Assembly (NCBI GenBank): GCA_049968235.1
Contig: JBMFRC010000010.1
Coordinates: forward strand, 1-64,000
Length of the DNA: 64,000 bases
Direction of reading: 5' to 3'
From: Candidatus Hydrogenedens sp.
GTDB lineage: Bacteria > Hydrogenedentota > Hydrogenedentia > Hydrogenedentales > Hydrogenedentaceae
Below are positions 1 through 33,782 of this stretch, piece after piece. A program made the position numbers and the translations under genes. Each line of letters opens with the position of its first letter. The stretch's first letter is position 1. The notes below the pieces were generated by a model. It saw only the letters and a list, made by a program, of their open reading frames with translations, had not been told where the DNA came from and did no database searches.

Positions 1-493
1 TACATAATTTATAATGGTCGCCAATAAATTGTCTTATATCTCGTTGGAATTCTGCTGGATTTTTTATATCATACTTTTCAAACTCTCTCGCAAATTCTAA
101 AAATGTTTCATGATTTTTCCACCATGTATCATGTAAAGGCTTAAATTCTTTATATGCTTTTTCCTGTTCAGACGTAAGTTTTATACCTTCAATTAAATCA
201 AATGCTTTTTTAAATTCTTCTTTTGCCTGTTCGAATCTTTTATACTGCGCAGTTCTTATCTCGTCAGTTGCTTCTGTGGATAACAATGAACTTTCACCTG
301 CCAAAACGCGCGGATATTGGGCTCTTATTATATATGTATCTGTTAATGGTAATGAACGAGTTGTTAATGCATTAATAGTTTTTGAAATCTGCCAGACAGA
401 GATAAGACCTACAAGACCTACTATGACTAAAATAAAAGTCAATAATCCGAAACCAATTGCAAGTCTCTTTCCAATAGTTAAACTCTTTTTCAT
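1..493 (-). CDS. Methyl-accepting chemotaxis protein-like sensor, N-terminal part only; 3' end runs off the left edge of the window
   Basis: Reverse-strand ORF begins with ATG (revcomp of 491-493) and reads MKKSLTIGKRLAIGFGLLTFILVIVGLVGLISVWQISKTINALTTRSLPLTDTYIIRAQYPRVLAGESS... with no stop before position 1. An N-terminal TM helix followed by a helical sensor is typical of the 4HB_MCP/MCP N-terminus. It is absent from the ORF track because it is truncated. Confidence 0.45.
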   Translation of the reverse strand, partial: MKKSLTIGKRLAIGFGLLTFILVIVGLVGLISVWQISKTINALTTRSLPLTDTYIIRAQYPRVLAGESSLLSTEATDEIRTAQYKRFEQAKEEFKKAFDLIEGIKLTSEQEKAYKEFKPLHDTWWKNHETFLEFAREFEKYDIKNPAEFQRDIRQFIGDHYKLC

Positions 494-605: not shown

Positions 606-2156
606 TTATTTTTTTACTTTATATAACTTAAGATTAATTCCTAATTTTTTTATTTTTGCTCTTAATGTGTTTGGATTTACACCTAATAGTTCTGCACATC
701 CTCCTTTACCATCAATTTTCCCATTTGTTCTGGATAAAACATATTCAATATATCTTTTATTATATTCATTTAAAGGTATAATCTCTTCAGTTTCTTCCTT
801 ACTTTTATGCATAAATATTATTTGCTTTGTATTTGATAAACCCAGGGCATGTGCTATTTCTAACTTCTTACCATTCCCTAAAATAGCCGAACGGTCAATT
901 ACAGAAGCAAGTTCACGAACATTTCCCGGCCATGAATAATGACAGAGAAGTTCTATATCATCTTCCGTGGGATAGACCACCGGTAAACTAAATCGTTGTG
1001 CTGATTTCTCTGCAAAATATTTTGCCATTTCCGGAATATCTTCTTTCCTTTCTCTTAGTGGTGGTAATATGATAGGAAATGTTGAGATACGGTAGAACAA
1101 ATCTTCACGGAATTTTTTTTCAACTACCAATTGTGCAAGGTCAGAATTGGTTGCAGTAACAAGACGCACATCTACATGAATAGGTTCTTTTCCACCTACC
1201 CTTTCAAACCAGCCATCCTGTAAAATTCGAAGTAGCCGAACCTGTGCATGCAAAGGTAAATCTCCTATTTCATCCAGAAATAAAGTGCCTCCATCAGCCC
1301 GTTCAAACCAACCGATATGTTTTTCAACAGCACCCGTAAAAGAACCTTTCTCATGACCAAATAATTGTGAATCAATCAACTCCGGTGGGATAGCCCCGCA
1401 ATTAACGCGTATTATTGGTCCCTGTGCCCTATTTGAATTTTTATGTAATGCACGAGCAATAAGTTCTTTACCCGTTCCTGTCTCACCTAAAATTAATACA
1501 GGCAGGTCTGAACTGGCTACTAATTTAACCCGCTCCATAACATATTTTAAGCCTGTATTTTCTCCTATAATTCGTTCACCAAACGATTCCCTACCTAACT
1601 TTCGTAACAGGTTTATTTTTTCCGCTTCTTCCGCTTTCTTTAATGTCTCCATTTCGAGAATTCGAATATGATTTGCCAGTGCCACTGAAAAAGGCTTTTG
1701 AAGTATTTTTAGTATATCCTTAATTCTATCAGGAATTAGACCATTCTTTTTTAATACCCCTATCAAAATCCCTTCTATACTTTTATCAACTTCTAATGGA
1801 GATAGAAAAATAGAAGAAAACCATTCATGCTCATAGAAAGATGAAAGAATAGTAAACAGATAGCCAGGAAGAGAAATTTCCGTTCCCTGAAACACCGATT
1901 TTTCTACAGAAAATTTCTGTAATTGATTTATCATTTCCTCAGTTAAAGATATATGATTCATCTTGTGCATTTTTGTAGGCTTAGGTGTAGATATAAGTTC
2001 TAATATCTTCAATTTTCTGTGTATAACCAGAATATCTATGCTTTCTAATGTAAATATTTCTTTTTTTATTTCAGGAATGATTCTGATTAAAAAATCTTCT
2101 ATTCTATTATGTTTTGCAACCTCTTTCCATATAGTCAATAACGAATCTTTGTTCAT
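606..2156 (-). CDS. Sigma-54-dependent transcriptional activator (bEBP): N-terminal sensory GAF-like domain, AAA+ sigma-54 interaction domain, C-terminal Fis-type HTH
   Basis: Walker A GETGTGKE. GAFTGA-region motif ESQLFGHEKGSFTGA. Sigma-54 interaction domain signatures are present (LFLDEIGDLPLHAQVRLLRILQDG, FREDLFYRI). C-terminal HTH EYVLSRTNGKIDGKGGCAELLGVNPNTLRAKIKKLGI. Confidence 0.85.
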   Translation of the reverse strand: MNKDSLLTIWKEVAKHNRIEDFLIRIIPEIKKEIFTLESIDILVIHRKLKILELISTPKPTKMHKMNHISLTEEMINQLQKFSVEKSVFQGTEISLPGYLFTILSSFYEHEWFSSIFLSPLEVDKSIEGILIGVLKKNGLIPDRIKDILKILQKPFSVALANHIRILEMETLKKAEEAEKINLLRKLGRESFGERIIGENTGLKYVMERVKLVASSDLPVLILGETGTGKELIARALHKNSNRAQGPIIRVNCGAIPPELIDSQLFGHEKGSFTGAVEKHIGWFERADGGTLFLDEIGDLPLHAQVRLLRILQDGWFERVGGKEPIHVDVRLVTATNSDLAQLVVEKKFREDLFYRISTFPIILPPLRERKEDIPEMAKYFAEKSAQRFSLPVVYPTEDDIELLCHYSWPGNVRELASVIDRSAILGNGKKLEIAHALGLSNTKQIIFMHKSKEETEEIIPLNEYNKRYIEYVLSRTNGKIDGKGGCAELLGVNPNTLRAKIKKLGINLKLYKVKK

Positions 2157-2293
2157 AGCCTATCCTTTATATATCGTGTTTATTTCCACCATATATTTCA
2201 GTATTATATTTTATATAATTCCACTAAATATTTCAAATATAAAAAGTTGATATTTGACAGTTATTTATATAGTAAAATATATCTCTATAATAT

Positions 2294-2308
2294 TGGCACT
2301 TTTTTTGC
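2294..2308 (+). promoter_or_regulatory. Sigma-54 (RpoN) -24/-12 promoter upstream of cysP
   Basis: TTGGCAC-TTTTT-TTGCT read directly from the sequence. GG is at 2295-2296 and GC at 2307-2308, so the second G of GG and the G of GC are exactly 11 nt apart, matching the consensus TGGCAC-N5-TTGC. The element lies 32 nt upstream of the cysP ATG and divergent from the bEBP gene. Confidence 0.6.
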
Positions 2309-2339
2309 TCATAACATAACATAAGTTAAGGAGTATTAT

Positions 2340-3335
2340 ATGTTTAAAAGGTTTATGTTTTTTTGCATAATAATTAATTTCTTTTTAGGATATTGCTTTG
2401 GTGAAACAATAGAATTATTAAATGTCTCTTATGACCCAACACGGGAATTATATAAAGAAATCAATATAGTTTTTGCTGAGAAATGGAAAAAGGAAAATGG
2501 AAACGAATTAAATATTAAAATGTCTCATGGCGGTTCTGGTAAACAAGCCCGTTCTGTCATGGAAGGATTAGAGGCAGACGTCGTAACTTTAGCATTAGCC
2601 TATGATATAGATATGATTGCAAAAATGAGGGGGCTTTTGTCTCCGAATTGGCAAAAGCAATTACCCAATAACAGTTGTCCCTATACTTCAACAATTGTTT
2701 TCCTTGTTCGAAAAGGAAATCCAAAAAATATTAAAACCTGGGATGACTTAATTCGACCTGATGTGCAGGTGATAACGCCAAATCCTAAGACTTCTGGAGG
2801 TGCACGCTGGTGTTATTTGGCATGTTGGGGGTATGCGTACCGCAAGGCAGGTATTGAACATGCACGAGACTTTGTGAAAAAGGTATATAAAAATGTCCCT
2901 GTATTGGATACAGGAGCAAGGGGTTCAACCAATACCTTTCTTCAAGGTATTGGAGATGTTCTGTTAAGTTGGGAAAATGAAGCATTTCTTGCAATACAGG
3001 AAACACAAAATAGTCTTGAAGTTGTTTCCCCTGGAGAAAGTATATTAGCAGAACCTCCTGTTGCTGTTATAGATAAATATGTAGAAAAACATAAGACAAG
3101 AGATATTGCACAGGAATATCTTAAATTTCTTTATTCAGACGAGGCACAGAATATAATTGTAAAACATTTTTATCGTTGTAGTAACACTGCTATATTTGAA
3201 AAATTTCAAAACAAATTTCTAAATGTTAAATTGTTTCGACTTGAGGAATTGTATCCCGGTGGATGGGAAGAGGCACATAAAATTCACTTTTCAGATGGGG
3301 GGATATTTGACCAGATTATGTTAGAAAGAAAGTAA
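2340..3335 (+). CDS. cysP: Sulfate/thiosulfate ABC transporter substrate-binding protein
   Basis: Conserved Sbp/CysP blocks: [89 protein letters not shown]. An N-terminal signal peptide is present. Confidence 0.9.
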
Positions 3336-3338
3336 AGG

Positions 3339-4175
3339 ATGAAAAAAATATTAAATAAAAAATCTGTTCTACCCGGATATGGTCTTTCATTGGGTATAAC
3401 ATGGTTATATTTAAGTTTAATTATTCTCCTTCCACTATCCACACTATACATTAAAGTTTTTAGTGGGTCCTTAAATGATTTTATTTCCGCTGTTTTTTCG
3501 ATAAGAGCCATAAAAGCATATCAGGTATCCTTCGGATTATCTTTTATATCCGCCTGCATAAATTCTTTGTTCGGATTTCTTGTTGCATGGGTTATTGTGC
3601 GGTATAAAATTCCTTTTAAGGGCTTCTGGGATGCATTGATTGATTTACCATTTGCTCTACCTACATCAGTTGCAGGAATTTCATTAACATGGTTATATGG
3701 ACCTCGAGGCTGGATAGGTTCATTTTTAGAGTCGCATGGATTTAAGGTTGTTTTTACCCCTATCGGTATAGCAATTGCAATGATTTTTGTGAGTTTCCCT
3801 TTTGCAGTCAGAACAATAGAACCTGTATTGAGGGATTTAGACCCGGAGGTAGAAGAATCAGCCCGATGTTTAGGTGCTTCTCGCTTGAACATTTTTCAAA
3901 AAATCATATTTCCGACAATTCTTCCTTCAATGCTAACAGGATTTACACTGAGCTTTGCTCGGTCTATGGGTGAATATGGTTCTGTCATTTTTATTGCGGG
4001 GAACCAACCATTAAAAACAGAAATAGCCCCATTATTAATTGTAATGCGATTAGAAGAATATGACTATTATGGTTCTGCTTCCATCGCTGTATTTCTTTTA
4101 ACTGTATCTTTCTTATTACTTTTGTGCTTAAATTTTATACAATTCTGGAATAAACGCTACTCAGGGATTACATAA
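3339..4175 (+). CDS. cysT: Sulfate ABC transporter permease CysT (CysU)
   Basis: 278 aa polytopic protein with the ABC permease EAA-like loop region (ESARCLGASRLNIFQKIIFP). Its position between sbp and cysW matches the canonical operon order. Confidence 0.85.
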   Translation: MKKILNKKSVLPGYGLSLGITWLYLSLIILLPLSTLYIKVFSGSLNDFISAVFSIRAIKAYQVSFGLSFISACINSLFGFLVAWVIVRYKIPFKGFWDALIDLPFALPTSVAGISLTWLYGPRGWIGSFLESHGFKVVFTPIGIAIAMIFVSFPFAVRTIEPVLRDLDPEVEESARCLGASRLNIFQKIIFPTILPSMLTGFTLSFARSMGEYGSVIFIAGNQPLKTEIAPLLIVMRLEEYDYYGSASIAVFLLTVSFLLLLCLNFIQFWNKRYSGIT

Positions 4176-4178
4176 ATT

Positions 4179-5027
4179 ATGAGAATGAAAAGATTGCTTG
4201 TGATATGTTTCCATTTATTTCTTATTACAGTTGCTCTGTGTTTTCTTCTTTTGTTCCTTGTTATACCTCTGTTTGTAGTATTTTTCAATGCATTTATTCA
4301 GGGTATTTCTGTATATGCAGGTAATATTACTCGTAAAGAAACTATCGAATCTATTCTCTTAACCTTAAAAATATTACTCATTGTCTTACCTTTGAATACA
4401 TTTTTTGGTATAGCATGTGCCTGGTATATTACCCGATATACATTTCGAGGGAAGAAAATACTTCTTACCTTTTTAGATTTGCCTTTTACAGTCTCCCCTG
4501 TTGTTGCAGGGACAATATTTGTCTTGTTGTTTTCAGTGAACGGTTTGTTAGGTAAAATTGTGGAAAAGTGGGACATTCAAATTATATTTGCTTTTCCTGG
4601 AATGGTTCTTGCGACATTGTTTGTAACTTTTCCCTTTGTAGCCAGAGAGTTAATACCTATTATGGAGGAACAGGGACAGGAAATGGAAGAAGCGGGAAGA
4701 ATGTTAGGAGCCAATACATGGCAGATATTACTAAAAATTACATTACCGAATATACGTTGGGCTTTATTTTATGGTATGGTTTTGTGTTCTGCACGTTGTG
4801 TAGGTGAATTTGGAGCAGTTTCTGTTGTTTCAGGGCATATACGGGGAAAGACCATAACTGTTCCTCTGGAAGTGGAGATTTTATATAACGAATATAACCT
4901 GATAGGTGCTTTCTGTGTAGCAAGTTTACTTTGTGTTATCGGAATTGTAAGTTTAATATTCCGCAAGTGGATAGAAAAAAGAGACCCACTTTATTTATAT
5001 ATGAAAACACATAAATATGGAGATTAG
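4179..5027 (+). CDS. cysW: Sulfate ABC transporter permease CysW
   Basis: 282 aa polytopic permease with the EAA loop ([27 protein letters not shown]), placed immediately before cysA. Confidence 0.85.
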
Positions 5028-5035
5028 ATTTTAAA

Positions 5036-6082
5036 ATGAGCATTGAAATAATTGGTGTTTCAAAGAAATTTGGGTCTTTTGTGGCTGTAGATAATGTAAG
5101 TTTTTCTATTGATAGAGGGGAATTACTGGCACTGTTAGGTCCTTCAGGTTCGGGCAAAACAACTATACTACGAATTATAGCAGGTCTTGAACGGGCGGAT
5201 TCGGGAAGTGTTATTTTGGAAGGCAGGGATGTGACAAAAGAGGACCCTCGCGACAGAGGTATAGGTTTCGTATTTCAGCACTATGCCCTTTTCCGGCACA
5301 TGACTGTATTCGAAAATGTGGCATTTGGTTTGCGAGTAAAACCTCGTAGGGTAAGACCCAGCGAATCTGAAATACGAAAGAGAGTGATGGATTTATTAAC
5401 ACTGGTGCAGTTAGACTTTTTAGCCAATCATTATCCCATGCAACTTTCTGGCGGTCAGAGACAGCGGGTAGCATTAGCAAGGGCTTTGGCAATCCAACCG
5501 TCTATTTTACTTTTAGATGAACCGTTTGGTTCATTAGACGCTCGAGTTCGTAAAGAATTACGAAGATGGTTACGAAAACTACATGATGAAATACATGTTA
5601 CAAGTGTTTTTGTTACTCATGACCAGGAAGAAGCCCTTGAGGTTTCTGACCGCGTCGTTATTATGAATCAGGGAAGAATTGAACAAATAGGTTCACCGGA
5701 AGAGGTATATTTTTCTCCTAAAACTCCGTTTGTTTTCCAATTTTTAGGTGATGTTAATCTATTTCATGCCCGTGAATTGAGTAATGGAGAAATTGTATTT
5801 TTGCCGGATGATTCCAGAGGAGTAGAAAAAAGTGTTTTTGTTAGACCGAACCAAATATCCATAGCACTCCATTTATCGGAAGAAAATCCTATTCCAGCAA
5901 CGATTCAATATATCAACACAGCTGGACCAATGGTAAAGATAGAACTATCGGATAAAAAAGGGAATCCTTTGTTAGCTTTTATTTCCATTGAAGAATTTCA
6001 AAAGTTAAACTTAAAAAAGAATATGAATGTTTTCTTAGGTGTAAAAGCGCATCACTTTTTTGATAATCTAACTAATTTTTAA
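5036..6082 (+). CDS. cysA: Sulfate/thiosulfate import ATP-binding protein CysA (ABC ATPase with C-terminal TOBE-like domain)
   Basis: Walker [10 protein letters not shown], signature [15 protein letters not shown], Walker [13 protein letters not shown]-loop VTHD. The roughly 100 aa C-terminal extension is typical of CysA/ModC-type TOBE domains. Confidence 0.9.
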
Positions 6083-6124: not shown

Positions 6125-6201
<77 letters not shown>

Positions 6202-22566: not shown

Positions 22567-25500
22567 TTAATTTAATGGTTCTAAGAATAATCCTACGGGG
22601 ATATCATCAATAGTGATTTGTTTCATATCGGATATTTCAGTATCCGAAATATTAATAGTGTTTGCCAGCACTTCCTTTGCCAGCATATCTTTATATTCGG
22701 AGAAAGTATTTTGTAGAGAGTTATCGTTTGTTACCAGTGTTAAAAAGATCCTTTTATCGTAGGGAAGTTGTTTCGATTTGCGAAGTTCCTGTATTTCTCT
22801 GATTACGTCGCGTATCCATCCTTCTTTCTTTAGTTCCTCTGTAATTGTAGTTGTTAAAATAACCACCATATTTTTCCCTTGAGATGCTGTAAAACCTTCT
22901 TTGGGGATAAGTTTTACGCTCAAATCCTCTTCTTTAAGAGATACTCTCTCCCCTTCTATATCCAGCATATATTCACCATTTGTAGTAATATCATGATATA
23001 TTTTGGCTCCATTAGCAGATGCTAAAGCGTTGGCTAATGATTTTACTTTTTTTCCTAACTTAGGTCCTAAAAGTTTATAATTAGGTTTTATCTCATAATT
23101 CACATAAAGTTCCGGCTGGTTTGAAAACTCAATTTCTTTAATATTTAGCTCTTCTTTTATGATTTCTATGTAAGAAATGACCTTATCTTTTAGTTCTGGA
23201 GATGATAAAATTATTTCACATTTTGCCAGGGGTTGACGAACCTTGATGTTAGACAAACGACGGGCACTTAACCCCAGAGTTACTGCTTCTCTTGCAAGAG
23301 CCATATTTTCGAGCAGAACATTATCTATTTCATCTGGGTTAGCAGTTGGATATGTAGACAAATGAACACTTTCTGTAGCCGTTTTTAGAGGCTTTGTAAG
23401 ATTTTTCCATGTAATTTCCGAAAAGAAAGGAACAAAAGGTGCTGAAATTCGTGCGAGATTAATAAGACATTCAAATAATGTCCAGTATGCGTCTGCTTTT
23501 TGTTCTGTCCACACACTATCCCAGAAACGAGGACGACTTCTGCGAACATACCAGTTTGATAAACCTTCCAGAAAGTCAAAAATAGCCTTTGCAGATGGGT
23601 AGGTTTCATACTGGTCGAGTGAATTTCGAACCTGAATAATGGTTTTGTTCATTTCGTTTAGTATCCAGCGGTCTAATTCACAGCGTTCATTCCATTGCCG
23701 ATATGCCTTCACCGGGTCAGTTGGAGAACTTACGAATTCTTCCTTAACCTCGTTGGGATTGGATGATACATCCTGAAGTAACTTTAAGGGTGCTCCTTCC
23801 GCTGTAAAACCATCCAAATTAGCATATATTGTGAAAAAACTGTATACATTATACCAACGTATTAAGAGGTCGCTCTGAAGTTCTTCAATAAGTTTTTCCT
23901 GAAATCTTGTTGTAGTAGTGGGAGAATTTTTTGCAACGAAACTCCATCGTAAAGCATCTGCACTATATTTATCAAAAACATATTTTGGCTCTTTATAATT
24001 TTTTAGTCTTTTTGACAATTTATACCCATCTTCGCCCTGAATATGTCCTAAACATACACAATTTTTGAATGGATGTGGATATTCTTTCTTATCTCCAAAA
24101 AGTATGGTACTAATTGCTAAAAGTGCATAAAACCAACCTCTTGTTTGGTCTATCGCTTCACTGATAAAATCTGCAGGAAAATTCTCAAGAAATATTTTTT
24201 CTGAATCTTCTTTATGGGGATATCCCCATTGAGCAAAAGGCATACATCCCGCATCAAACCAGCAATCAATAACTTCGGGTACCCTTCTCATACGTGAATT
24301 TGGGTCCTTGGGACTTTGATATGTAATAGCATCTATATAAGGTTTATGAACCTTTAAGTTTTCGTTTAATTCTGGATTTGCTTTTTTAGCATTTTCCCAT
24401 ACATCCATGCCTTGCACATCAGGTTTTGAAAGTAGTTCTTCATAGGATGAGATACATTCCATATAACCTGTTTTTTCGCAAACCCAGATTGGTAATGGTG
24501 TCCCCCAGAATCTTTCACGAGATAATGCCCAGTCAACATTTGTTGCAAGGAAATTCCCAAAACGACCATCCCGAATATGTTCCGGTTGCCATGATATTTT
24601 CTGGTTATTTTTCAGAAATTCATTTATAAATTCTGATGTTTTGATGAACCAACTCTGTCGTGCGTATTGAATAAGCGGGTCATTATCTGCACGGGGGCAG
24701 AAAGGGTAAGCATGGCGGAACTGTTCTTGTTTTAAGAGATGTCCTCGCTCTTTCAATATTCGGATAATTGATTTATCGGCGTCTTTACAAAACTTTCCTC
24801 TTAAAGGTTCACCTGTATATAAATCTTTCTCTGTAACTCTTTCGTCAAATGTGCCATCCGATTTAACAAAACAAAGAAAACCTATCCCCAGTTCTTTACA
24901 TACTTTGTAGTCATCCTCACCGAAAGCAGGTGCGATATGAACCAGACCGGTACCTGTTTCTATGTCTACAAAATCACCGGCTATAATAACCCAATATTTA
25001 TCAGAGGGTCCTGTCCCTTCAATTTTTTGAGGGGTATCATACTTAAATAGGGGTTCATAAGTTAAACCGACCAATTCTATTCCGCTAAAAGTCTTTTCGA
25101 TTTTAATTTTTTCGCCCAATACCGATTTTGCCACGGCGCTTGCAATTATGAACCATTCTTTATTGCCATCCTTTTCCATCTCTACCAGTGCGTATTCAAT
25201 ATGAGGACCCACACAGATAGCACAGTTACTTAATAGTGTCCATGGGGTAGTCGTCCATATCAGAAAACTTACTTTATCATTTTCGGTAAACCCCATCTTT
25301 TCTTTACTTTCTTTTGTGAGTGATATACGAACTGTTATAGATGGGTCATCTGTTTCCCTATAGCCCTCACCTACTTCGCCGGCGGATAAAGCGGTACCAC
25401 CCTGTGCCCACCACCAAACTACTTTATATCCTCGATAAAGCAATCCCCTATCGAAAAGTTGTTTTAATGCCCACCACACACTTTCAACATAAGATTGATG

Positions 25501-25977
25501 ATATGTTACATACGCCTGTTCAAGGTCTACCCAAAAACCAATTCGCTCGGTCATTTCTTCCCATTCTTTCTGGTAACGGAAAACAGAATCAATACAGGCT
25601 TTGTTAAATGCTTCTATTCCGTATGCTTCTATTGCAGATTTACCACCGTCTATAATTCCCAATGTTTTACATACTTCAATTTCCACAGGAAGACCGTGAG
25701 TATCCCAGCCTGCTTTTCTTTCACAATAATAACCATCCATTGTTTTATATCGTGGGAAAATATCTTTTATAGTTCTTGTGAGGCAATGACCCGGATGAGG
25801 CAAACCATTTGCGGTTGGAGGACCTTCATAGAATACAAATTTTGGGGCATTTTTTCTCTGCTCTAAACTTTTATGATATATCTTCTTTTCTTTCCAAAAC
25901 TTAATGATTTCTTGTTCTGCCTGAGCAAAATTAAATTGCGATGAAGGAACTACATCATCAAACACTTTCTTTTTCAT
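22567..25977 (-). CDS. ileS: Isoleucine--tRNA ligase, type 2 (eukaryote/archaeal-like long form)
   Basis: 1136 aa. HIGH motif region (PPTANGLPHPGHCL), KMSKS (GYKLSKRLKN), editing domain, and the extended C-terminus typical of type-2 IleS. Confidence 0.95.
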   Translation of the reverse strand: MKKKVFDDVVPSSQFNFAQAEQEIIKFWKEKKIYHKSLEQRKNAPKFVFYEGPPTANGLPHPGHCLTRTIKDIFPRYKTMDGYYCERKAGWDTHGLPVEIEVCKTLGIIDGGKSAIEAYGIEAFNKACIDSVFRYQKEWEEMTERIGFWVDLEQAYVTYHQSYVESVWWALKQLFDRGLLYRGYKVVWWWAQGGTALSAGEVGEGYRETDDPSITVRISLTKESKEKMGFTENDKVSFLIWTTTPWTLLSNCAICVGPHIEYALVEMEKDGNKEWFIIASAVAKSVLGEKIKIEKTFSGIELVGLTYEPLFKYDTPQKIEGTGPSDKYWVIIAGDFVDIETGTGLVHIAPAFGEDDYKVCKELGIGFLCFVKSDGTFDERVTEKDLYTGEPLRGKFCKDADKSIIRILKERGHLLKQEQFRHAYPFCPRADNDPLIQYARQSWFIKTSEFINEFLKNNQKISWQPEHIRDGRFGNFLATNVDWALSRERFWGTPLPIWVCEKTGYMECISSYEELLSKPDVQGMDVWENAKKANPELNENLKVHKPYIDAITYQSPKDPNSRMRRVPEVIDCWFDAGCMPFAQWGYPHKEDSEKIFLENFPADFISEAIDQTRGWFYALLAISTILFGDKKEYPHPFKNCVCLGHIQGEDGYKLSKRLKNYKEPKYVFDKYSADALRWSFVAKNSPTTTTRFQEKLIEELQSDLLIRWYNVYSFFTIYANLDGFTAEGAPLKLLQDVSSNPNEVKEEFVSSPTDPVKAYRQWNERCELDRWILNEMNKTIIQVRNSLDQYETYPSAKAIFDFLEGLSNWYVRRSRPRFWDSVWTEQKADAYWTLFECLINLARISAPFVPFFSEITWKNLTKPLKTATESVHLSTYPTANPDEIDNVLLENMALAREAVTLGLSARRLSNIKVRQPLAKCEIILSSPELKDKVISYIEIIKEELNIKEIEFSNQPELYVNYEIKPNYKLLGPKLGKKVKSLANALASANGAKIYHDITTNGEYMLDIEGERVSLKEEDLSVKLIPKEGFTASQGKNMVVILTTTITEELKKEGWIRDVIREIQELRKSKQLPYDKRIFLTLVTNDNSLQNTFSEYKDMLAKEVLANTINISDTEISDMKQITIDDIPVGLFLEPLN

Positions 25978-26082: not shown

Positions 26083-27789
26083 TCAATGTTTTTCAGTCAT
26101 AGTTCGCCATTCACTTTGATATTTTTCATAAAGACCAAATACTTCTATAGGAATTTGCTTTTTTATGTATTCGATATCTGGTAATTCTGGGTCTAAAAAT
26201 ATGGCAGTATCGAGATAGCATACAGCAGGTTTCCATAATTTCTTATCAATGAAATATTTCGTTTCTTTTAAAAATATTTTTGCTAATGCTTTTTTACTAT
26301 CCTGATTTTCAAATCTATTAATATTTGTTAAATTATATTTCTTGATAATCGGCATAATTTCGTTTTTCAATGTTTCGGGGTTTATAAAATCTTTATCTCC
26401 CCAGAGGTCAGTCCAATATAATCTTCCATCATAGCCTGAAGATAATGCATACCATCCCAAATTTTTCCATCGTGCAATTTGATGCCATTCCCGGTTTAAT
26501 TTTACAGGAGATAAAATAAGGATAAAGAAAAGAATAAGTGCAATTATTAGAAGAAATATACGCATATATTTGTTTGTAATATATTTTTCAAAAGGATTTT
26601 CTGTGTTTTTTACATAGAAATTAAACAAACCGATGACAGAACACCAGAATAAACATCCTGTTGTGATATATCGTGATGATAAAGCCTGTCCCAACCCGAG
26701 ACCAGACCTTCCCCATGCAAGTAAAATACCACTAAATATAACAAATAGAGAAAGACTTTTCCAGAAGTAATATTCATCCGCTTTTGAATTTAGGATTCTT
26801 TTTTTTAGTAATATTTGTTTATCTTTTTCAAATTTACATACCTGTATATTATCGATAATAATGTCTTTTGATTTATAAAGGAGTGCTATCCATAAGACAA
26901 GTCCTATTATTCCAAATAGATAGAATATTAGATTTATGTCAGGTAGTTTGTTCCCGTGCCACGGGGGAGTAAATATAAATCCAGATAAGGGGCTACCTAT
27001 ATATAGAATGAAATATAAAAATTTATGCGTTAATCCCGTATCTGTATTGGTTTGTGAAATAGAAGGTGTGTGATAGTTTGTAAAGTAGAATATTAAAACA
27101 GTTGTCGCACAAAGGACCCAAATAAGAATGTGCATGAAATTTTTTCTTGTTTTTGAAACTTTATAAATTAATAGAGGTAAAGAAATAAACCATATTAATA
27201 ATCCGTTTGCAAAAGAATAAGAGGCTAATGTTGTCAATATGACACAAATAGATAATGTTAAAATGTTTATTTGATATTTCTGCATAATAAATAAGACAAA
27301 AATACAGAGCAAATTTGTGAGAAACATCGTTAGTTGTAATCCCCAAACCCAGTTTTCCATTTGTGACCAGGAAAAAAGCAATAGAGAGATATAAAAAATA
27401 GGAAGAACTTTTATTTTTTCATTTTTAAATTTTTCTAATTTTTCATAATCTGTATGTTCTTTGTTGCTGGAGATAGTTATAGCTGCAAGAATTATAAATT
27501 GAGCGATTACAAATATAAGACTGCAATAAAGAATAGACAATTCATTCCAGGAAGTTATTTTGGCTAACCCCAGAGTAATTATTCTTGGAAGGAAAGGTCT
27601 GTGATTATTTTGTAAAAAGAATAAATCCGTTAAAGAAAGTGTTCCCCGACTTAATTTATCGTATAAGGGGATATATAATACTTCATCCCAATACGGGAAA
27701 CGATATCCATATTTATATATGAGAACAATGGTCGTAATTATCGGGAATATTGATATGAGTAAATAAATAATATATTTCGTATATTTCAT
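26083..27789 (-). CDS. Large polytopic membrane protein, possibly a GT-C-fold glycosyltransferase-like protein (function unknown)
   Basis: 568 aa with at least 10 predicted TM helices, followed by a soluble C-terminal segment of about 130 aa. No diagnostic catalytic motif recognised. Confidence 0.35.
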   Translation of the reverse strand: MKYTKYIIYLLISIFPIITTIVLIYKYGYRFPYWDEVLYIPLYDKLSRGTLSLTDLFFLQNNHRPFLPRIITLGLAKITSWNELSILYCSLIFVIAQFIILAAITISSNKEHTDYEKLEKFKNEKIKVLPIFYISLLLFSWSQMENWVWGLQLTMFLTNLLCIFVLFIMQKYQINILTLSICVILTTLASYSFANGLLIWFISLPLLIYKVSKTRKNFMHILIWVLCATTVLIFYFTNYHTPSISQTNTDTGLTHKFLYFILYIGSPLSGFIFTPPWHGNKLPDINLIFYLFGIIGLVLWIALLYKSKDIIIDNIQVCKFEKDKQILLKKRILNSKADEYYFWKSLSLFVIFSGILLAWGRSGLGLGQALSSRYITTGCLFWCSVIGLFNFYVKNTENPFEKYITNKYMRIFLLIIALILFFILILSPVKLNREWHQIARWKNLGWYALSSGYDGRLYWTDLWGDKDFINPETLKNEIMPIIKKYNLTNINRFENQDSKKALAKIFLKETKYFIDKKLWKPAVCYLDTAIFLDPELPDIEYIKKQIPIEVFGLYEKYQSEWRTMTEKH

Positions 27790-27958: not shown

Positions 27959-28534
27959 ATGAATATAAAAATCACAGGTAGGCACATGGAAATGTCTGAT
28001 GCATTGAGAAGTTATATTGAAAATGCACTTCATAAGTTAACCAACCATTTTGATAAGATTATAAATGCGGATGTAGTGCTGGATGTAGAAAAACATAGAC
28101 ACATTTGTGAAATAAATATAAATGCAAATGGTATGCGGATACATAGTAAAGAAATATCTAATGATATGTATGCATCCGTTGATTCAGTTATAGAGAAATT
28201 AGACCGACAGATTCGTAAATTTAAGGATAAAATAAAGAATCACAAACCGCGTAGTTATGAAGAAACACGGAAATATAAACATGTGATACTTGAAGTGAAG
28301 GATGAAACTGAAAAGAAAGAAGGCGTTCAAGAAGAGGAAGTGCCAGTAGTTCCTCATGAGATTTTACATAGAGAACAAATCGCGTTAAAGCCTATGTCTG
28401 TTGATGAGGCATTGATGCAAATACAACTTTTAGAGGAACCTTTCCTTGTATTTATCAATGTAGAAACTTCACAAGTAAATGTATTATATCCAAGAGGTAA
28501 TAACACTTATGGATTAATTGAACCACAATTTTAG
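27959..28534 (+). CDS. hpf: Ribosome hibernation promoting factor, long form (HPF / sigma-54 modulation protein family)
   Basis: MNIKITGRHMEMSDALRSYIENALHKL is the canonical RaiA/HPF N-terminus. 191 aa with the C-terminal dimerisation extension of long HPF. Confidence 0.85.
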   Translation: MNIKITGRHMEMSDALRSYIENALHKLTNHFDKIINADVVLDVEKHRHICEININANGMRIHSKEISNDMYASVDSVIEKLDRQIRKFKDKIKNHKPRSYEETRKYKHVILEVKDETEKKEGVQEEEVPVVPHEILHREQIALKPMSVDEALMQIQLLEEPFLVFINVETSQVNVLYPRGNNTYGLIEPQF

Positions 28535-28604: not shown

Positions 28605-29579
28605 ATGTGGGAATATGATTTACAAATGAATTTTAGAAAAAGAGGGTCTATTCCTGTAGCCTCACTTTTTAAGGAATCTATTTCATCTGAATTGGGGTTG
28701 AAAATCATAGCAGGGTTTCAAGGTATTCGCAGGGAGGTATTTACTGCAGATGTAAATCGTCCCGGTTTGGCTTTAACAGGTTATTTAGAATATTTTGCGA
28801 ATGACAGAATTCAGGTTTTGGGGAATACAGAAATACATTACATTGAACGATTATCCCCTGCGGAACTTGAAAATCGGTTGCAATACATGTTTTCTTTTGA
28901 AATTCCTGCATTTCTTCTATCTCGTTCCTTAGTTCCACCCCAAATATTTTTAGATATTTGTAATCGTCATGGGGTACCTGTATTACAATCAAACCTTACA
29001 ACAGACCAGGTAATTAGTAAAACAATTTTATTTCTTGCAGAAAAATTTGCACCGGAAACGACTATACATGGGACCGTAGTAGATTGTTATGGTATTGGTG
29101 TAATCATTGTCGGTGAGTCGGGAATAGGTAAAAGTGAAACCGCTCTCGAACTTGTGGAAAGAGGGCATCGTCTTGTGGTTGATGATGTAGTTCGTTTAAG
29201 AAAAGGTATAGAGGATATTGTAATTGCTGAAAGCGACCCCCAGTTAGAACATTATATGCATATTCGAGGTATTGGTGTAGTAGATGTTTTATCTGTTTAC
29301 GGTGCGGGTAGAATTCGTAGAAGAAAACAGGTTGGGTTGATTATCGAACTTGTTGAAAAGATGGAAGATTATCACATTATTTTAGATGTCTGGCCTGAAA
29401 AAGAGGTATTAAATGTAAAAGTTCCCTATTTGAAAGTTCCTGTAGGACCGGGACGAAATTTAGCCGTTATAGTGGAAGCAGCTGCGTTAAAATGTCGTAT
29501 GAGAGAATTAGGAATAGATATAGACCAGAAATTTTCGGAGCGTTCTAAACAAGCCACCACCCATTATCCACTAACATGA
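28605..29579 (+). CDS. hprK: HPr kinase/phosphorylase
   Basis: P-loop GESGIGKSETALELVERGHRLVVDDVV and the HprK signature region HIRGIGVVDVLSVYGAG. 324 aa. Confidence 0.85.
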   Translation: MWEYDLQMNFRKRGSIPVASLFKESISSELGLKIIAGFQGIRREVFTADVNRPGLALTGYLEYFANDRIQVLGNTEIHYIERLSPAELENRLQYMFSFEIPAFLLSRSLVPPQIFLDICNRHGVPVLQSNLTTDQVISKTILFLAEKFAPETTIHGTVVDCYGIGVIIVGESGIGKSETALELVERGHRLVVDDVVRLRKGIEDIVIAESDPQLEHYMHIRGIGVVDVLSVYGAGRIRRRKQVGLIIELVEKMEDYHIILDVWPEKEVLNVKVPYLKVPVGPGRNLAVIVEAAALKCRMRELGIDIDQKFSERSKQATTHYPLT

Positions 29580-32030: not shown

Positions 32031-33782
32031 ATGGAAAAGATTTATCATGGAATACCTGTATCCCCTGGCATTGTTTGGGGTGAAGCTCTTGTATATGACC
32101 CGGGAGTTATCAATATTCCACGATTCAAAATTAAAAATCCCAGAGAAGAATACAAAAGAGTTCAGTCGGCGATAGATTTAACTAAAGAGGAATTAACGCT
32201 TCTTTACAAAAAGACCCTTGAAAATTCTGGGAACAAGCAAGCGGGTATTTTCGATGTACATTTAATGCTTCTTGAAGATGAAACAATATTAGTAGAATTG
32301 AAAAGGCGAATTCATGAAGAATTATTAAATGCTGAGTCCGTCTTGCATGACATTGCTAAAAAGTATTCGAAGGACATACAATCTACCGGCAATTCATTTA
32401 TCGAAGAACGGTCAGCGGATGTGATTGATGTCATTGACCGGATTATTAGAAATCTTTTAGCACAGAAGCGACCTGACCTTGATAATATTAAGAAACCCTG
32501 TATTCTTTTGTCCGTGGATTTGCCTCCGTCAGAAACTGCGCGCTTGCATCCCGAAAAAATTCGTGCCATAGTTCTTGAGAGAGGTAGTGCTACTTCCCAT
32601 GTAGCGATATTAGCGAGGTCATTAAAAATTCCTACAATTGTTGGTGTAAGTAATCTATTTAACACATATACGAGTGTTATAAAAGGGTCAGCCGTTGATG
32701 CTATTTCAGGCATATTGTATATTAATCCCACTTCTGAAACTATTCTGAAATTACGACAGAAGAAAATTCAACTATCGAGACGATTTTTACAATATGAAAA
32801 GAGAATAATATCTTATCCTTCCCAAACATTAGATGGTAGGCGAATATCTGTTCTTGCGAATATTGAACTTCCCCATGAAGTGGATGATAATGTAAAGCAT
32901 TTATCCGCAGGTATAGGTCTATATAGAACCGAATATTTGTTCTTGAATAAACCGGAGCCTCCCACGGAAGAGGAACAATATAAAGAGTATTTATATGTTG
33001 CAAAAACATTAAATCCCTTACCAGTAATATTAAGAACTATTGATATTGGTGGAGATAAATTAGCAAGTTATACGAATTTTATAAAAGAACAAAATCCACA
33101 ATTGGGTTGTAGAGCAGTTCGTTTTTGTCTTGTTCATAAAGATTTTTTTAAGACACAACTTCGTGCTATGTTGCGTGCTGCGACGATTGGGAATATTAAA
33201 ATCATGTTTCCTATGATTAGTAGCATTGATGAACTTCGTGATGTAAAAAAAATCTTACAAGAAGTAAAAGACGAATTGACCTCGGAGAAAATTCCTTTTA
33301 ACAAAGAGCCTGAAATCGGAATTATGATAGAAGTTCCTTCTGCTGTTTTAATAGCAGATGAATTAGCCAAAGAGTGTAATTTTTTCAGCATTGGCACAAA
33401 TGACTTGATACAGTATTCGCTGGCTGTTGATAGAAATAATGAAAATATTGCTCATCTCTACGACCCAACCCATCCTGCAATACTTCGTATGTTGAAAATG
33501 ACCGTTTCTTCCGCTATAAAAGCCAATATATTTTGTAGTATTTGTGGGGAAATGGCAAGCGACCCGTTATTTACAGAGTTTCTTATTGGTTTAGGACTGG
33601 ATAGTTTAAGTATGTCAAGTGTATCTATTCCTCAAATAAGAGCGTTGATAACTAAAATCACATATACGGAGACGACAGAATTTTCGGAAAAAGTATTGAA
33701 ATGTGCTTCTTCCAAGGAGGTTCGGAGTATATTAAAAGAGAGAATTAATACAAAATTTAAAAATATCGTTTCTATAGTTTAA
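32031..33782 (+). CDS. ptsI: Phosphoenolpyruvate--protein phosphotransferase (PTS Enzyme I)
   Basis: Active-site His region GSATSHVAILARSL. PEP-utilising domain (GLYRTEYLF, FFSIGTNDLIQY). 583 aa. Confidence 0.9.
   Translation: MEKIYHGIPVSPGIVWGEALVYDPGVINIPRFKIKNPREEYKRVQSAIDLTKEELTLLYKKTLENSGNKQAGIFDVHLMLLEDETILVELKRRIHEELLNAESVLHDIAKKYSKDIQSTGNSFIEERSADVIDVIDRIIRNLLAQKRPDLDNIKKPCILLSVDLPPSETARLHPEKIRAIVLERGSATSHVAILARSLKIPTIVGVSNLFNTYTSVIKGSAVDAISGILYINPTSETILKLRQKKIQLSRRFLQYEKRIISYPSQTLDGRRISVLANIELPHEVDDNVKHLSAGIGLYRTEYLFLNKPEPPTEEEQYKEYLYVAKTLNPLPVILRTIDIGGDKLASYTNFIKEQNPQLGCRAVRFCLVHKDFFKTQLRAMLRAATIGNIKIMFPMISSIDELRDVKKILQEVKDELTSEKIPFNKEPEIGIMIEVPSAVLIADELAKECNFFSIGTNDLIQYSLAVDRNNENIAHLYDPTHPAILRMLKMTVSSAIKANIFCSICGEMASDPLFTEFLIGLGLDSLSMSSVSIPQIRALITKITYTETTEFSEKVLKCASSKEVRSILKERINTKFKNIVSIV

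Follow-up and report, generated by a model that had tools for sequence, protein, structure and literature searches.

The control of sulfate uptake in bacteria has been worked out mainly in a few model groups, through the LysR-type regulators CysB/Cbl, the Rrf2-type regulator CymR and riboswitches. To our knowledge, nothing is known of this control in Planctomycetota, Hydrogenedentota and many candidate phyla. In enterobacteria, the LysR-type proteins CysB and Cbl exert sigma-70 control of cysPTWA and sbp. The locus described here lies in a stretch of 64,000 nt from Candidatus Hydrogenedens sp. (Hydrogenedentota; contig JBMFRC010000010.1, positions 1 to 64,000), referred to below as the window, and comprises a sulfate importer operon, sbp-cysT-cysW-cysA, and a divergent gene coding for a bacterial enhancer-binding protein (bEBP). 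It is likely, and we hold this with considerable confidence, that the operon is run from a sigma-54 promoter activated by the bEBP, and that the bEBP is a dedicated regulator of assimilatory sulfur uptake. The bEBP is read in this way because it belongs to a multi-phylum family whose genes adjoin those for sulfate or sulfur-anion transporters, sulfate activation and cysteine synthesis.

The bEBP has the same domain order as NifA, NorR and FhlA/HyfR, namely a GAF sensor, a long helix, a sigma-54 AAA+ module and a Fis-type helix-turn-helix (HTH). The GAF domains of NifA, NorR and FhlA bind a small ligand (2-oxoglutarate, NO through iron, and formate, respectively) and gate the ATPase. Among solved sequences, the closest to the bEBP was NifA (9qq6_C; E = 6.6e-77, residues 159-509), and Aquifex NtrC1/NtrC4 were also among those closest to its AAA+ module. 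The best NCBIfam scores of the bEBP were for NorR, NifA and FhlA, at about 325-330 bits, and no NCBIfam equivalog cut-off was reached (NorR 329 bits vs 476, NifA 328 vs 529, FhlA 323 vs 830). The bEBP differs from these three regulators in its predicted targets, which are sulfate/sulfur-anion transporters and assimilation enzymes and not nif, nor or hyc/hyf genes.

The likeness to CysB lies in function, as the bEBP, like CysB, would be a dedicated activator of a sulfate/thiosulfate ABC importer, and the relatives of the bEBP also cover sulfate-activation and cysteine-synthesis genes. The two differ in kind: the bEBP has only Sigma54_activat, AAA_lid and HTH_8 domains, and is thus an AAA+ and not a LysR-type protein, with another sigma factor, a -24/-12 promoter plus a remote enhancer, and a need for ATP hydrolysis. 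SfnR of Pseudomonas, the known example of a bEBP in a sulfur-starvation response, is a sigma-54 activator with dimethylsulfone utilisation genes as targets, and is itself under CysB. SfnR controls organosulfur monooxygenases, whereas the bEBP family adjoins an inorganic sulfate importer.

A 2025 survey of predicted sigma-54 promoters described enrichment at sulfite reductase genes in Aquificia, and the word 'sulfate' occurs nowhere in its text (PMC12316311). For Paraburkholderia phymatum, a transcriptome difference is reported in which transcripts of the sulfate ABC transporter were reduced when rpoN was mutated, and direct promoter evidence was not found there (PMC5979394). In neither paper was a sigma-54 promoter at such a transporter, or a bEBP cognate to it, found. 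Full-text searches, with subscription journals outside their coverage, turned up no earlier account of a sulfate ABC transporter that is under a sigma-54 promoter or paired with a bEBP. The mechanism is ordinary; it is the bEBP family and its regulon that are undescribed, as far as literature was found.

The predicted sigma-54 promoter core, TGGCAC-N5-TTGC, is located at 2294-2308 (+), upstream of sbp. It reads TGGCACtttttTTGC, with the GG doublet at 2295-2296 and the GC doublet at 2307-2308, and extends over 2293-2309 when the flanking T's are included. The two doublets are exactly 10 nt apart and oriented toward sbp, as in sigma-54 promoters. This was the only exact match on either strand of the window, compared with a chance expectation of 0.03 in dinucleotide-preserving shuffles (at least one match in 3 of 100 shuffles). 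When one mismatch was allowed, 5 -24/-12-like matches were found in the window vs 1.6 expected; the sites at 5319, 25129, 31821 and 36747 all fall within open reading frames (ORFs) and were dismissed as chance or non-functional. An earlier note on this DNA had described the element as an exactly spaced match to the RpoN -24/-12 consensus, placed 32 nt before cysP (sbp) and facing away from an activator gene 184 nt distant. The match, its spacing, its position upstream of the importer and the divergent arrangement all stood, while the distances were corrected to 31 nt (from the GC doublet to the sbp ATG at 2340) and 183 nt (the bEBP-sbp intergenic region, 2157-2339). Transcription is predicted to start near 2320, and an AAGGAG ribosome-binding site for sbp is present at 2328-2333 (+).

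The promoter element was then scored in related loci (designated by L numbers). The best GG-N10-GC site in each of 41 non-redundant bEBP-sbp intergenic regions was scored on the 10 specified positions of TGGCAC-N5-TTGC, and the results were compared with 300 shuffles. On the sbp strand, at least 8 of the 10 consensus positions were present in 39 of 41 regions (shuffled mean 2.39), at least 9 in 25 of 41 (shuffled mean 0.28) and all 10 in 15 of 41 (shuffled mean 0.01), and the expectation that orthologous loci would keep TGGCAC-N5-TTGC was borne out. In the first seven related loci, a single GG-N10-GC was present on the sbp strand of each intergenic region, and its sequence was sigma-54-like. 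The family promoter logo, TGGCA[C/T]G-N4-TTGC[A/T], is that of a canonical sigma-54 promoter. The only member of the Hydrogenedens clade without the canonical GC was L173, with the promoter TGGCACggttcTTGA, in which TTGA replaces TTGC and the -12 GC becomes GA. On the opposite strand, 3 regions of a fuller set of 44 reached 9/10 (L091, L095 and L097, in each case facing the bEBP gene), and the activator gene itself may be under sigma-54 control in these lineages.

The identities of the importer genes were assigned with the curated cut-offs of NCBIfam, and all four products were above them, in agreement with the sulfate ABC importer cysPTWA of the earlier note. The first gene, sbp/cysP (2340-3335 (+)), encodes a periplasmic sulfate (or thiosulfate) binding protein of 331 amino acids (aa; NF008022, 445 bits vs cut-off 288), which also passed TIGR00971 (434 bits vs 155.5). 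It is followed by the permease genes cysT (3339-4175 (+), 278 aa; TIGR02139, 366.6 bits vs 246.1) and cysW (4179-5027 (+), 282 aa; TIGR02140, 356.7 bits vs 329.1), and by the ATPase gene cysA (5036-6082 (+), 348 aa; TIGR00968, 388.8 bits vs 342.75; Pfam ABC_tran and TOBE_3), the product of which has a C-terminal TOBE domain. As the coordinates indicate, the four ORFs are tightly packed. It could be that the sigma-54/bEBP wiring is real but that the substrate is thiosulfate or another oxyanion (molybdate, tungstate, selenate), or that the signal is not sulfur status but redox, energy or another metabolite; we consider this alternative unlikely. With regard to the substrate, the binding protein was also above the cut-off of the thiosulfate CysP model (339.5 bits vs 308). 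However, the sulfate Sbp model outscored the CysP model by about 105 bits, ModA-type models scored near zero, and the higher score favours sulfate over thiosulfate as the predicted substrate.

A tRNA-Arg(TCT) gene is located at 6125-6201 (+), 42 nt past the cysA stop codon. No intrinsic terminator-like site was predicted between cysA and this tRNA gene or just beyond it, so that the operon transcript has no predicted end.

The bEBP gene (606-2156 (-)) codes for a protein of 516 aa in which a GAF domain, a long linker helix, an AAA+ ATPase and a Fis-type HTH were assigned with Pfam and AlphaFold2 (mean pLDDT of the full-length model 85.6). The Pfam domains were Sigma54_activat (residues 196-362), AAA_lid_14 (368-436) and HTH_8 (467-505). 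The first two make up the AAA+ sigma-54 interaction module (residues 196-436; 849-1571 (-); PF00158 and PF25601), and the match to PF00158 was strong (E = 1.3e-69; 233.7 bits vs cut-off 20.2). Walker A (GETGTGKE) and Walker B (LFLDEIG) were invariant columns in an alignment of 104 sequences (A4). The sigma-54 contact loop, residues 271-276, was located by a six-frame motif scan at 1329-1346 (-), and its residues G271, F273, T274 and A276 are invariant in the family, GAFTGA being the form in most relatives. The C-terminal Fis-type HTH (residues 467-505; 642-758 (-); HTH_8 E = 5.2e-05, 23.3 bits vs cut-off 22) is the predicted DNA-binding domain for the enhancer sites. The description of a complete activator with an AAA+ domain, GAFTGA and a Fis HTH in the earlier note was upheld by Pfam for the domains, but the loop reads GSFTGA.

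The linker between the GAF domain and the AAA+ module (about residues 143-191; 1584-1730 (-)) was modelled as a helix over residues 143-186/191 in both models. It bears a family signature, LLEPFSVAL-N-...-LREAAEAEK-LL-KLGR, with conserved columns P155, N162, E168, E177, A178, L183, L184, L187 and R189 (alignments A1 and A5).

A partial protein with 100% identity to the bEBP carries an annotation as Candidatus Hydrogenedens sp. Close relatives of the bEBP had 60-86% identity to it, and a larger full-length set, from Thermoguttaceae, Pirellulales, Phycisphaerales, KSB1, Omnitrophota and metagenome bins, had 46-50% identity. These distant homologues align from end to end, with the N-terminal domain and the linker signature included. 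In the JGI annotation the relatives are labelled 'hydrogenase-4 transcriptional activator' or 'regulator with GAF, ATPase and Fis domain'. A search of 1.84 billion representative proteins with a profile of the N-terminal 192 residues gave 66 clusters at E <= 1e-30 and 893 at E <= 1e-10, and starts to yield generic multi-GAF proteins at values weaker than about 1e-30. A further 80 loci came from metagenomes, scanned with the alignment of the N-terminal domain as the seed. The full-length alignment A1 was rejected as a scan query, as its generic bEBP peptides (GETGTGKE, YxWPGNVRE) led to 79 unrelated bEBP loci and one true member (L011).

Gene linkage was counted in those non-redundant loci, 66 in number, in which the DNA upstream of the bEBP gene was 1200 nt or longer. 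The sbp gene was found upstream of the bEBP gene in 46 of these, on the opposite strand every time and usually across a gap of 160-530 nt. A divergent TauE/SafE (TSUP) anion permease was present in 6 of 66 loci (L011, L114, L115, L137, L143 and L140) and a divergent ATP sulfurylase in 2 (assigned by the PUA_2 domain of ATP sulfurylase with which the gene opens, before it runs off the contig), and in all a sulfur-related neighbour stood beside the bEBP gene in 54 of the 66. The TauE-linked loci L011, L114, L115 and L143 had the same -24/-12 element, directed toward tauE, together with enhancer-like motifs; L140 had a perfect -24/-12 element and an enhancer motif, and L137 was not resolved. The TSUP permease may thus be an alternative sulfur-anion importer in the predicted regulon. 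The Hydrogenedens relatives keep the divergent bEBP-sbp-cysTWA arrangement, but wider synteny is also conserved in this clade, and these loci are for that reason weak independent evidence. The same divergent bEBP-sbp pair was present with entirely different flanks in two metagenome-assembled genomes, one of Thermogutta and one of Omnitrophota, and in a complete genome of Phycisphaerales. On the basis of gene order, these distant loci with unrelated flanks are the deciding cases for the linkage of the bEBP with sbp.

In several related loci, further genes lie between the bEBP gene and sbp. These are a Usp gene and a fusion of ATP sulfurylase and adenosine 5'-phosphosulfate (APS) kinase in L125 (3858-6319), a PALP (CysK-like) enzyme and a Porin_O_P protein in L165 (4063-6808), a Cys/Met-metabolism pyridoxal phosphate (PLP) enzyme in L147 (4029-5411) and Porin_O_P anion porins in L133 (621-2276). 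Porin_O_P was also found between sbp and cysT in L010 (3345-4724), and after cysA in L007. The earlier note had proposed a sulfur-assimilation circuit. This proposal is supported by the pairing of the bEBP with sbp across phyla, and because the related operons hold ATP sulfurylase/APS kinase, CysK-like and Cys/Met PLP enzymes.

In the Phycisphaerales genome CP070772 (L009, 3178-4581), the operon contains sbp, one permease gene and a 185-aa remnant resembling the first half of CysW. This operon looks degraded and has no adjacent cysA, yet a perfect TGGCACatcccTTGC is retained.

The upstream regions of the GC-richer relatives carry 1-5 copies each of a motif, tCCATCATATATCACGGa (about CYAKCAwATwTnACGG), which is an imperfect dyad, CCGT-N8-ACGG. 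It was recovered only by seeded weight-matrix refinement; when palindromic dyads without mismatch were enumerated, with half-sites of 4-5 nt and gaps of 0-13 nt, none was shared by 12 regions or more. In the DNA from the bEBP start to the -24 element, the core AwATwTnACrG occurred 5.57 times per kb vs 0.017 times per kb in the remaining 295 kb of these loci, an enrichment of roughly 300-fold upstream of the -24 element in relatives. For a looser core, ATwTnACrG, the upstream distance to the -24 element had a median of 103 nt (interquartile range 87-128), and about 100 nt upstream is the usual enhancer distance for bEBPs. A recurrent TGGCGCGAGGCCTGC inside the bEBP ORFs of relatives was rejected, as it represents the codons of the conserved WREAC peptide. 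Two enhancer clusters were seen in L147, one beside the bEBP gene and the other, with a -24/-12 element, directly upstream of sbp.

In the window, candidate upstream activating sequence (UAS) sites, to which no strand was assigned, were scored with a weight matrix trained on distant relatives only. The best score in the intergenic region, 9.5 bits, was obtained for site 1, TTTATATATCGTGTT (2161-2180), and the second best, 7.4 bits, for site 2, TCCACCATATATTTCAGTAT (2185-2204); their centres are about 122 and 100 nt, respectively, upstream of the -24 element, and the sites are about 22 nt apart. Each is part of a block conserved in 8 Hydrogenedens-clade loci, CCACnAwATATCGTGrTTA for site 1 and CCACnATATATTTCwGAA for site 2, and the block of site 1 holds a perfect palindrome, CACGATATATCGTG, in L171. 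A direct repeat, D1 (2170-2200 / 2205-2235; 77% identity, 35-nt spacing), takes in site 2, and a possible third site, CCACTAAATATTTCAA (2221-2236), partly conserved in L001, represents the second copy of the repeat; the evidence for it is weak. The sequence GATATTTGACAG (2249-2260) is identical to the enhancer core of distant relatives (e.g. CCAGCATATTTGACAG in L010), but the matrix score at 2244-2263 was only 3.1 bits, GATATTTGACAG is not conserved in L001 and its role is uncertain. An exact match to the integration host factor (IHF) consensus, TATCAACTTTTTA at 2240-2252 (-), overlaps GATATTTGACAG and lies between the candidate enhancers and the -24 element. It was given no weight because it is not conserved in L001, the closest relative; the IHF pattern had 5 matches in 64 kb vs 16 in shuffles. 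The scan of 2157-2339 suggested in the earlier note thus yielded repeated, clade-conserved candidate sites that are kin to the motif enriched in relatives. Those at 2161-2180 and 2185-2204 are most likely the binding sites in this organism, an assignment that rests mainly on clade conservation, since their matrix scores are not the highest in 64 kb.

Several points weigh against the reading of the locus as a bEBP-activated sulfur-uptake operon. The candidate enhancer sites of the window are degenerate compared with the family motif, and the family matrix did not rank the sbp intergenic region first in 64 kb: the top match in the window, 16.9 bits, is inside the ORF of a class I aminoacyl-tRNA synthetase (22567-25977), and the motif is consequently not claimed to be statistically detectable in the window alone. 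The contact loop GSFTGA is a natural variant (A-to-S) of GAFTGA. The rpoN gene, on which activity of the promoter would depend, is not in the window, as no RpoN box was found in any of the six frames of the 64 kb. In 12 of the 66 loci, a recognised sulfur gene was absent next to the bEBP gene.

A further such point is a sigma-70-like promoter, TTTATA-N16-TATAAT, at 2264-2291 (+), which agrees with the consensus at 10 of 12 positions, directly adjoins the -24 element and could provide basal transcription of the operon. An operon driven mainly from this site, with a vestigial or incidental -24/-12 element, is very improbable. There were 8 promoter-like sites in the region vs 2.9 in shuffles, and a TATAAT-like box is retained just upstream of TGGCAC in L001, L003 and L005. 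However, the intergenic region is very AT-rich, so that sigma-70-like matches are cheap, and the TATAAT box is absent from GC-rich relatives, in which the -24/-12 element is kept, as it is in 39 of the 41 regions. In addition, no second exact sigma-54 core occurs in the 64 kb, and the neighbouring activator has an intact ATPase and contact loop. A second sigma-70-like promoter, TTGAAA-N17-TAAAAT at 2236-2208 (-), also with 10 of 12 positions, faces the bEBP gene and may be its own promoter.

The variant contact loop is also consistent with a bEBP that works without sigma-54, as a sigma-70 activator or repressor in the manner of Rhodobacter NtrC, TyrR or the dual-function PexR; the bEBP might otherwise target the chemoreceptor gene that follows it in the window, L001 and L003. 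In six relatives without an adjacent target (L101, L106, L107, L109, L117 and L129), a single enhancer core is kept 20-65 nt before the start codon of the bEBP gene and a divergent -24/-12 element is lacking. This suggests autoregulation, and targets elsewhere in the genome, in such family members. We regard either possibility as extremely unlikely: F273 and T274 of the loop and all of the ATPase motifs are invariant, the -24/-12 element co-occurs with the family, and neither L005, L007 nor any of the distant relatives has the chemoreceptor gene.

The gene downstream of the bEBP gene in the window (2-493 (-)) encodes the N-terminus of a methyl-accepting chemotaxis protein, which is 90% identical to that of L001. 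The chemoreceptors of L001 (7667-9682) and L003 carry a CZB (zinc-binding) domain. Elsewhere in the window are hpf ('sigma-54 modulation protein'/S30AE family; 27959-28534 (+)), an HPr kinase gene (28605-29579 (+)) and a gene for a PtsI-like PEP-utilising enzyme (32031-33782 (+)). Genes of these three kinds often accompany rpoN. The ORF upstream of the hpf cluster (26083-27789 (-)) had no Pfam match.

The first 137 residues or so of the bEBP (1746-2156 (-)) form the presumed signal-sensing module. The earlier note had called this region a GAF-like sensor and proposed a hidden Markov model search of it. At default thresholds, Pfam gave no match in residues 1-195; among 14 relatives, weak matches to GAF_3 were found in 6 and to GAF_2 in 5, and a profile search of PDB sequences with the N-terminal domain returned marginal GAF matches only. 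The AlphaFold2 model of the N-terminal 192 residues had a pLDDT of 86.8 and a pTM of 0.81, and in both of the models, which are confident, an alpha/beta domain leads into a helix of about 45 residues. Foldseek against the PDB gave 109 matches at E <= 0.001, and the 50 listed were all GAF-containing. The best was 3K2N, the GAF domain of a Chlorobium tepidum sigma-54-dependent regulator (TM 0.61/0.65, 15% identity), followed by the PtsP GAF domain and by phytochrome and cAMP-binding GAF domains. As modelled, the N-terminal domain is a GAF fold; the earlier assignment therefore holds at the level of the fold, while the support from domain profiles is weak.

A cysteine in the first helix (WREACRHI, residue 15-16 region) was conserved in most relatives (alignments A1 and A4). 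It is replaced by K, S or N in the Hydrogenedens clade (WKEVAKHN), and is consequently not a universal ligand or redox site; the sensing chemistry of the GAF domain may differ between clades. The absence of this cysteine in the Hydrogenedens clade would be in line with the alternative mentioned above, in which the signal is something other than sulfur status. So would the great diversity of GAF ligands, evident in the range of fold matches, the lack of assignable ligand-binding residues in the bEBP, and the presence of Usp genes at the head of some related operons. On the other hand, the ATP sulfurylase/APS kinase, CysK-like and Cys/Met PLP companions fit only the assimilation of sulfate-derived sulfur. 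As a guess at the signal, sulfur status would be the most parsimonious, given that the uptake, activation and incorporation of sulfate sulfur are the functions of the conserved targets.

With sulfur status as the presumed signal, the following mechanism is proposed. The sigma-54 holoenzyme would sit in a closed complex at 2294-2308, and the promoter would be silent unless activated. The bEBP would bind by its Fis-type HTH to 2-4 related sites, at distances of about 40-130 nt on the upstream side of the -24 element, assemble into an AAA+ ring and reach the closed holoenzyme complex through DNA looping. ATP hydrolysis and the GSFTGA loop would then open the promoter. The GAF domain, acting via the long linker helix, would gate the ATPase on a small-molecule signal, most plausibly sulfur status. 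The bEBP would in this way fill the role that CysB has in enterobacterial sulfur uptake.

Since sigma-54 promoters are essentially silent without their activator, it is plausible that sigma-54 control allows an ATP-costly importer to be shut off tightly wherever reduced sulfur can be had, for example in anaerobic digesters. A wider proposal assigns to this family the primary control of assimilatory sulfur metabolism in Hydrogenedentota, Planctomycetota and allied lineages, most of them uncultured. The family would there be a sigma-54-based functional substitute for CysB, its GAF domain would directly sense a metabolite that reflects sulfur status, and its regulon would consist of sulfate/TSUP transporters, anion porins, ATP sulfurylase/APS kinase, and cysteine/homocysteine synthesis. 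The chances of this wider proposal being correct appear evenly balanced. The analysis yields a regulator family that is now labelled generically, or misleadingly as a 'hydrogenase-4 activator', together with its promoter signature, a DNA-binding motif and a first outline of a regulon. Given the family, the promoter signature and the motif, sulfur-responsive genes would be predictable from sequence in uncultured lineages, and an orphan GAF sensor becomes a target for ligand screening. If the wider proposal is true, no sigma-54 sulfur regulon with an enhancer motif of its own would have been described before this one.

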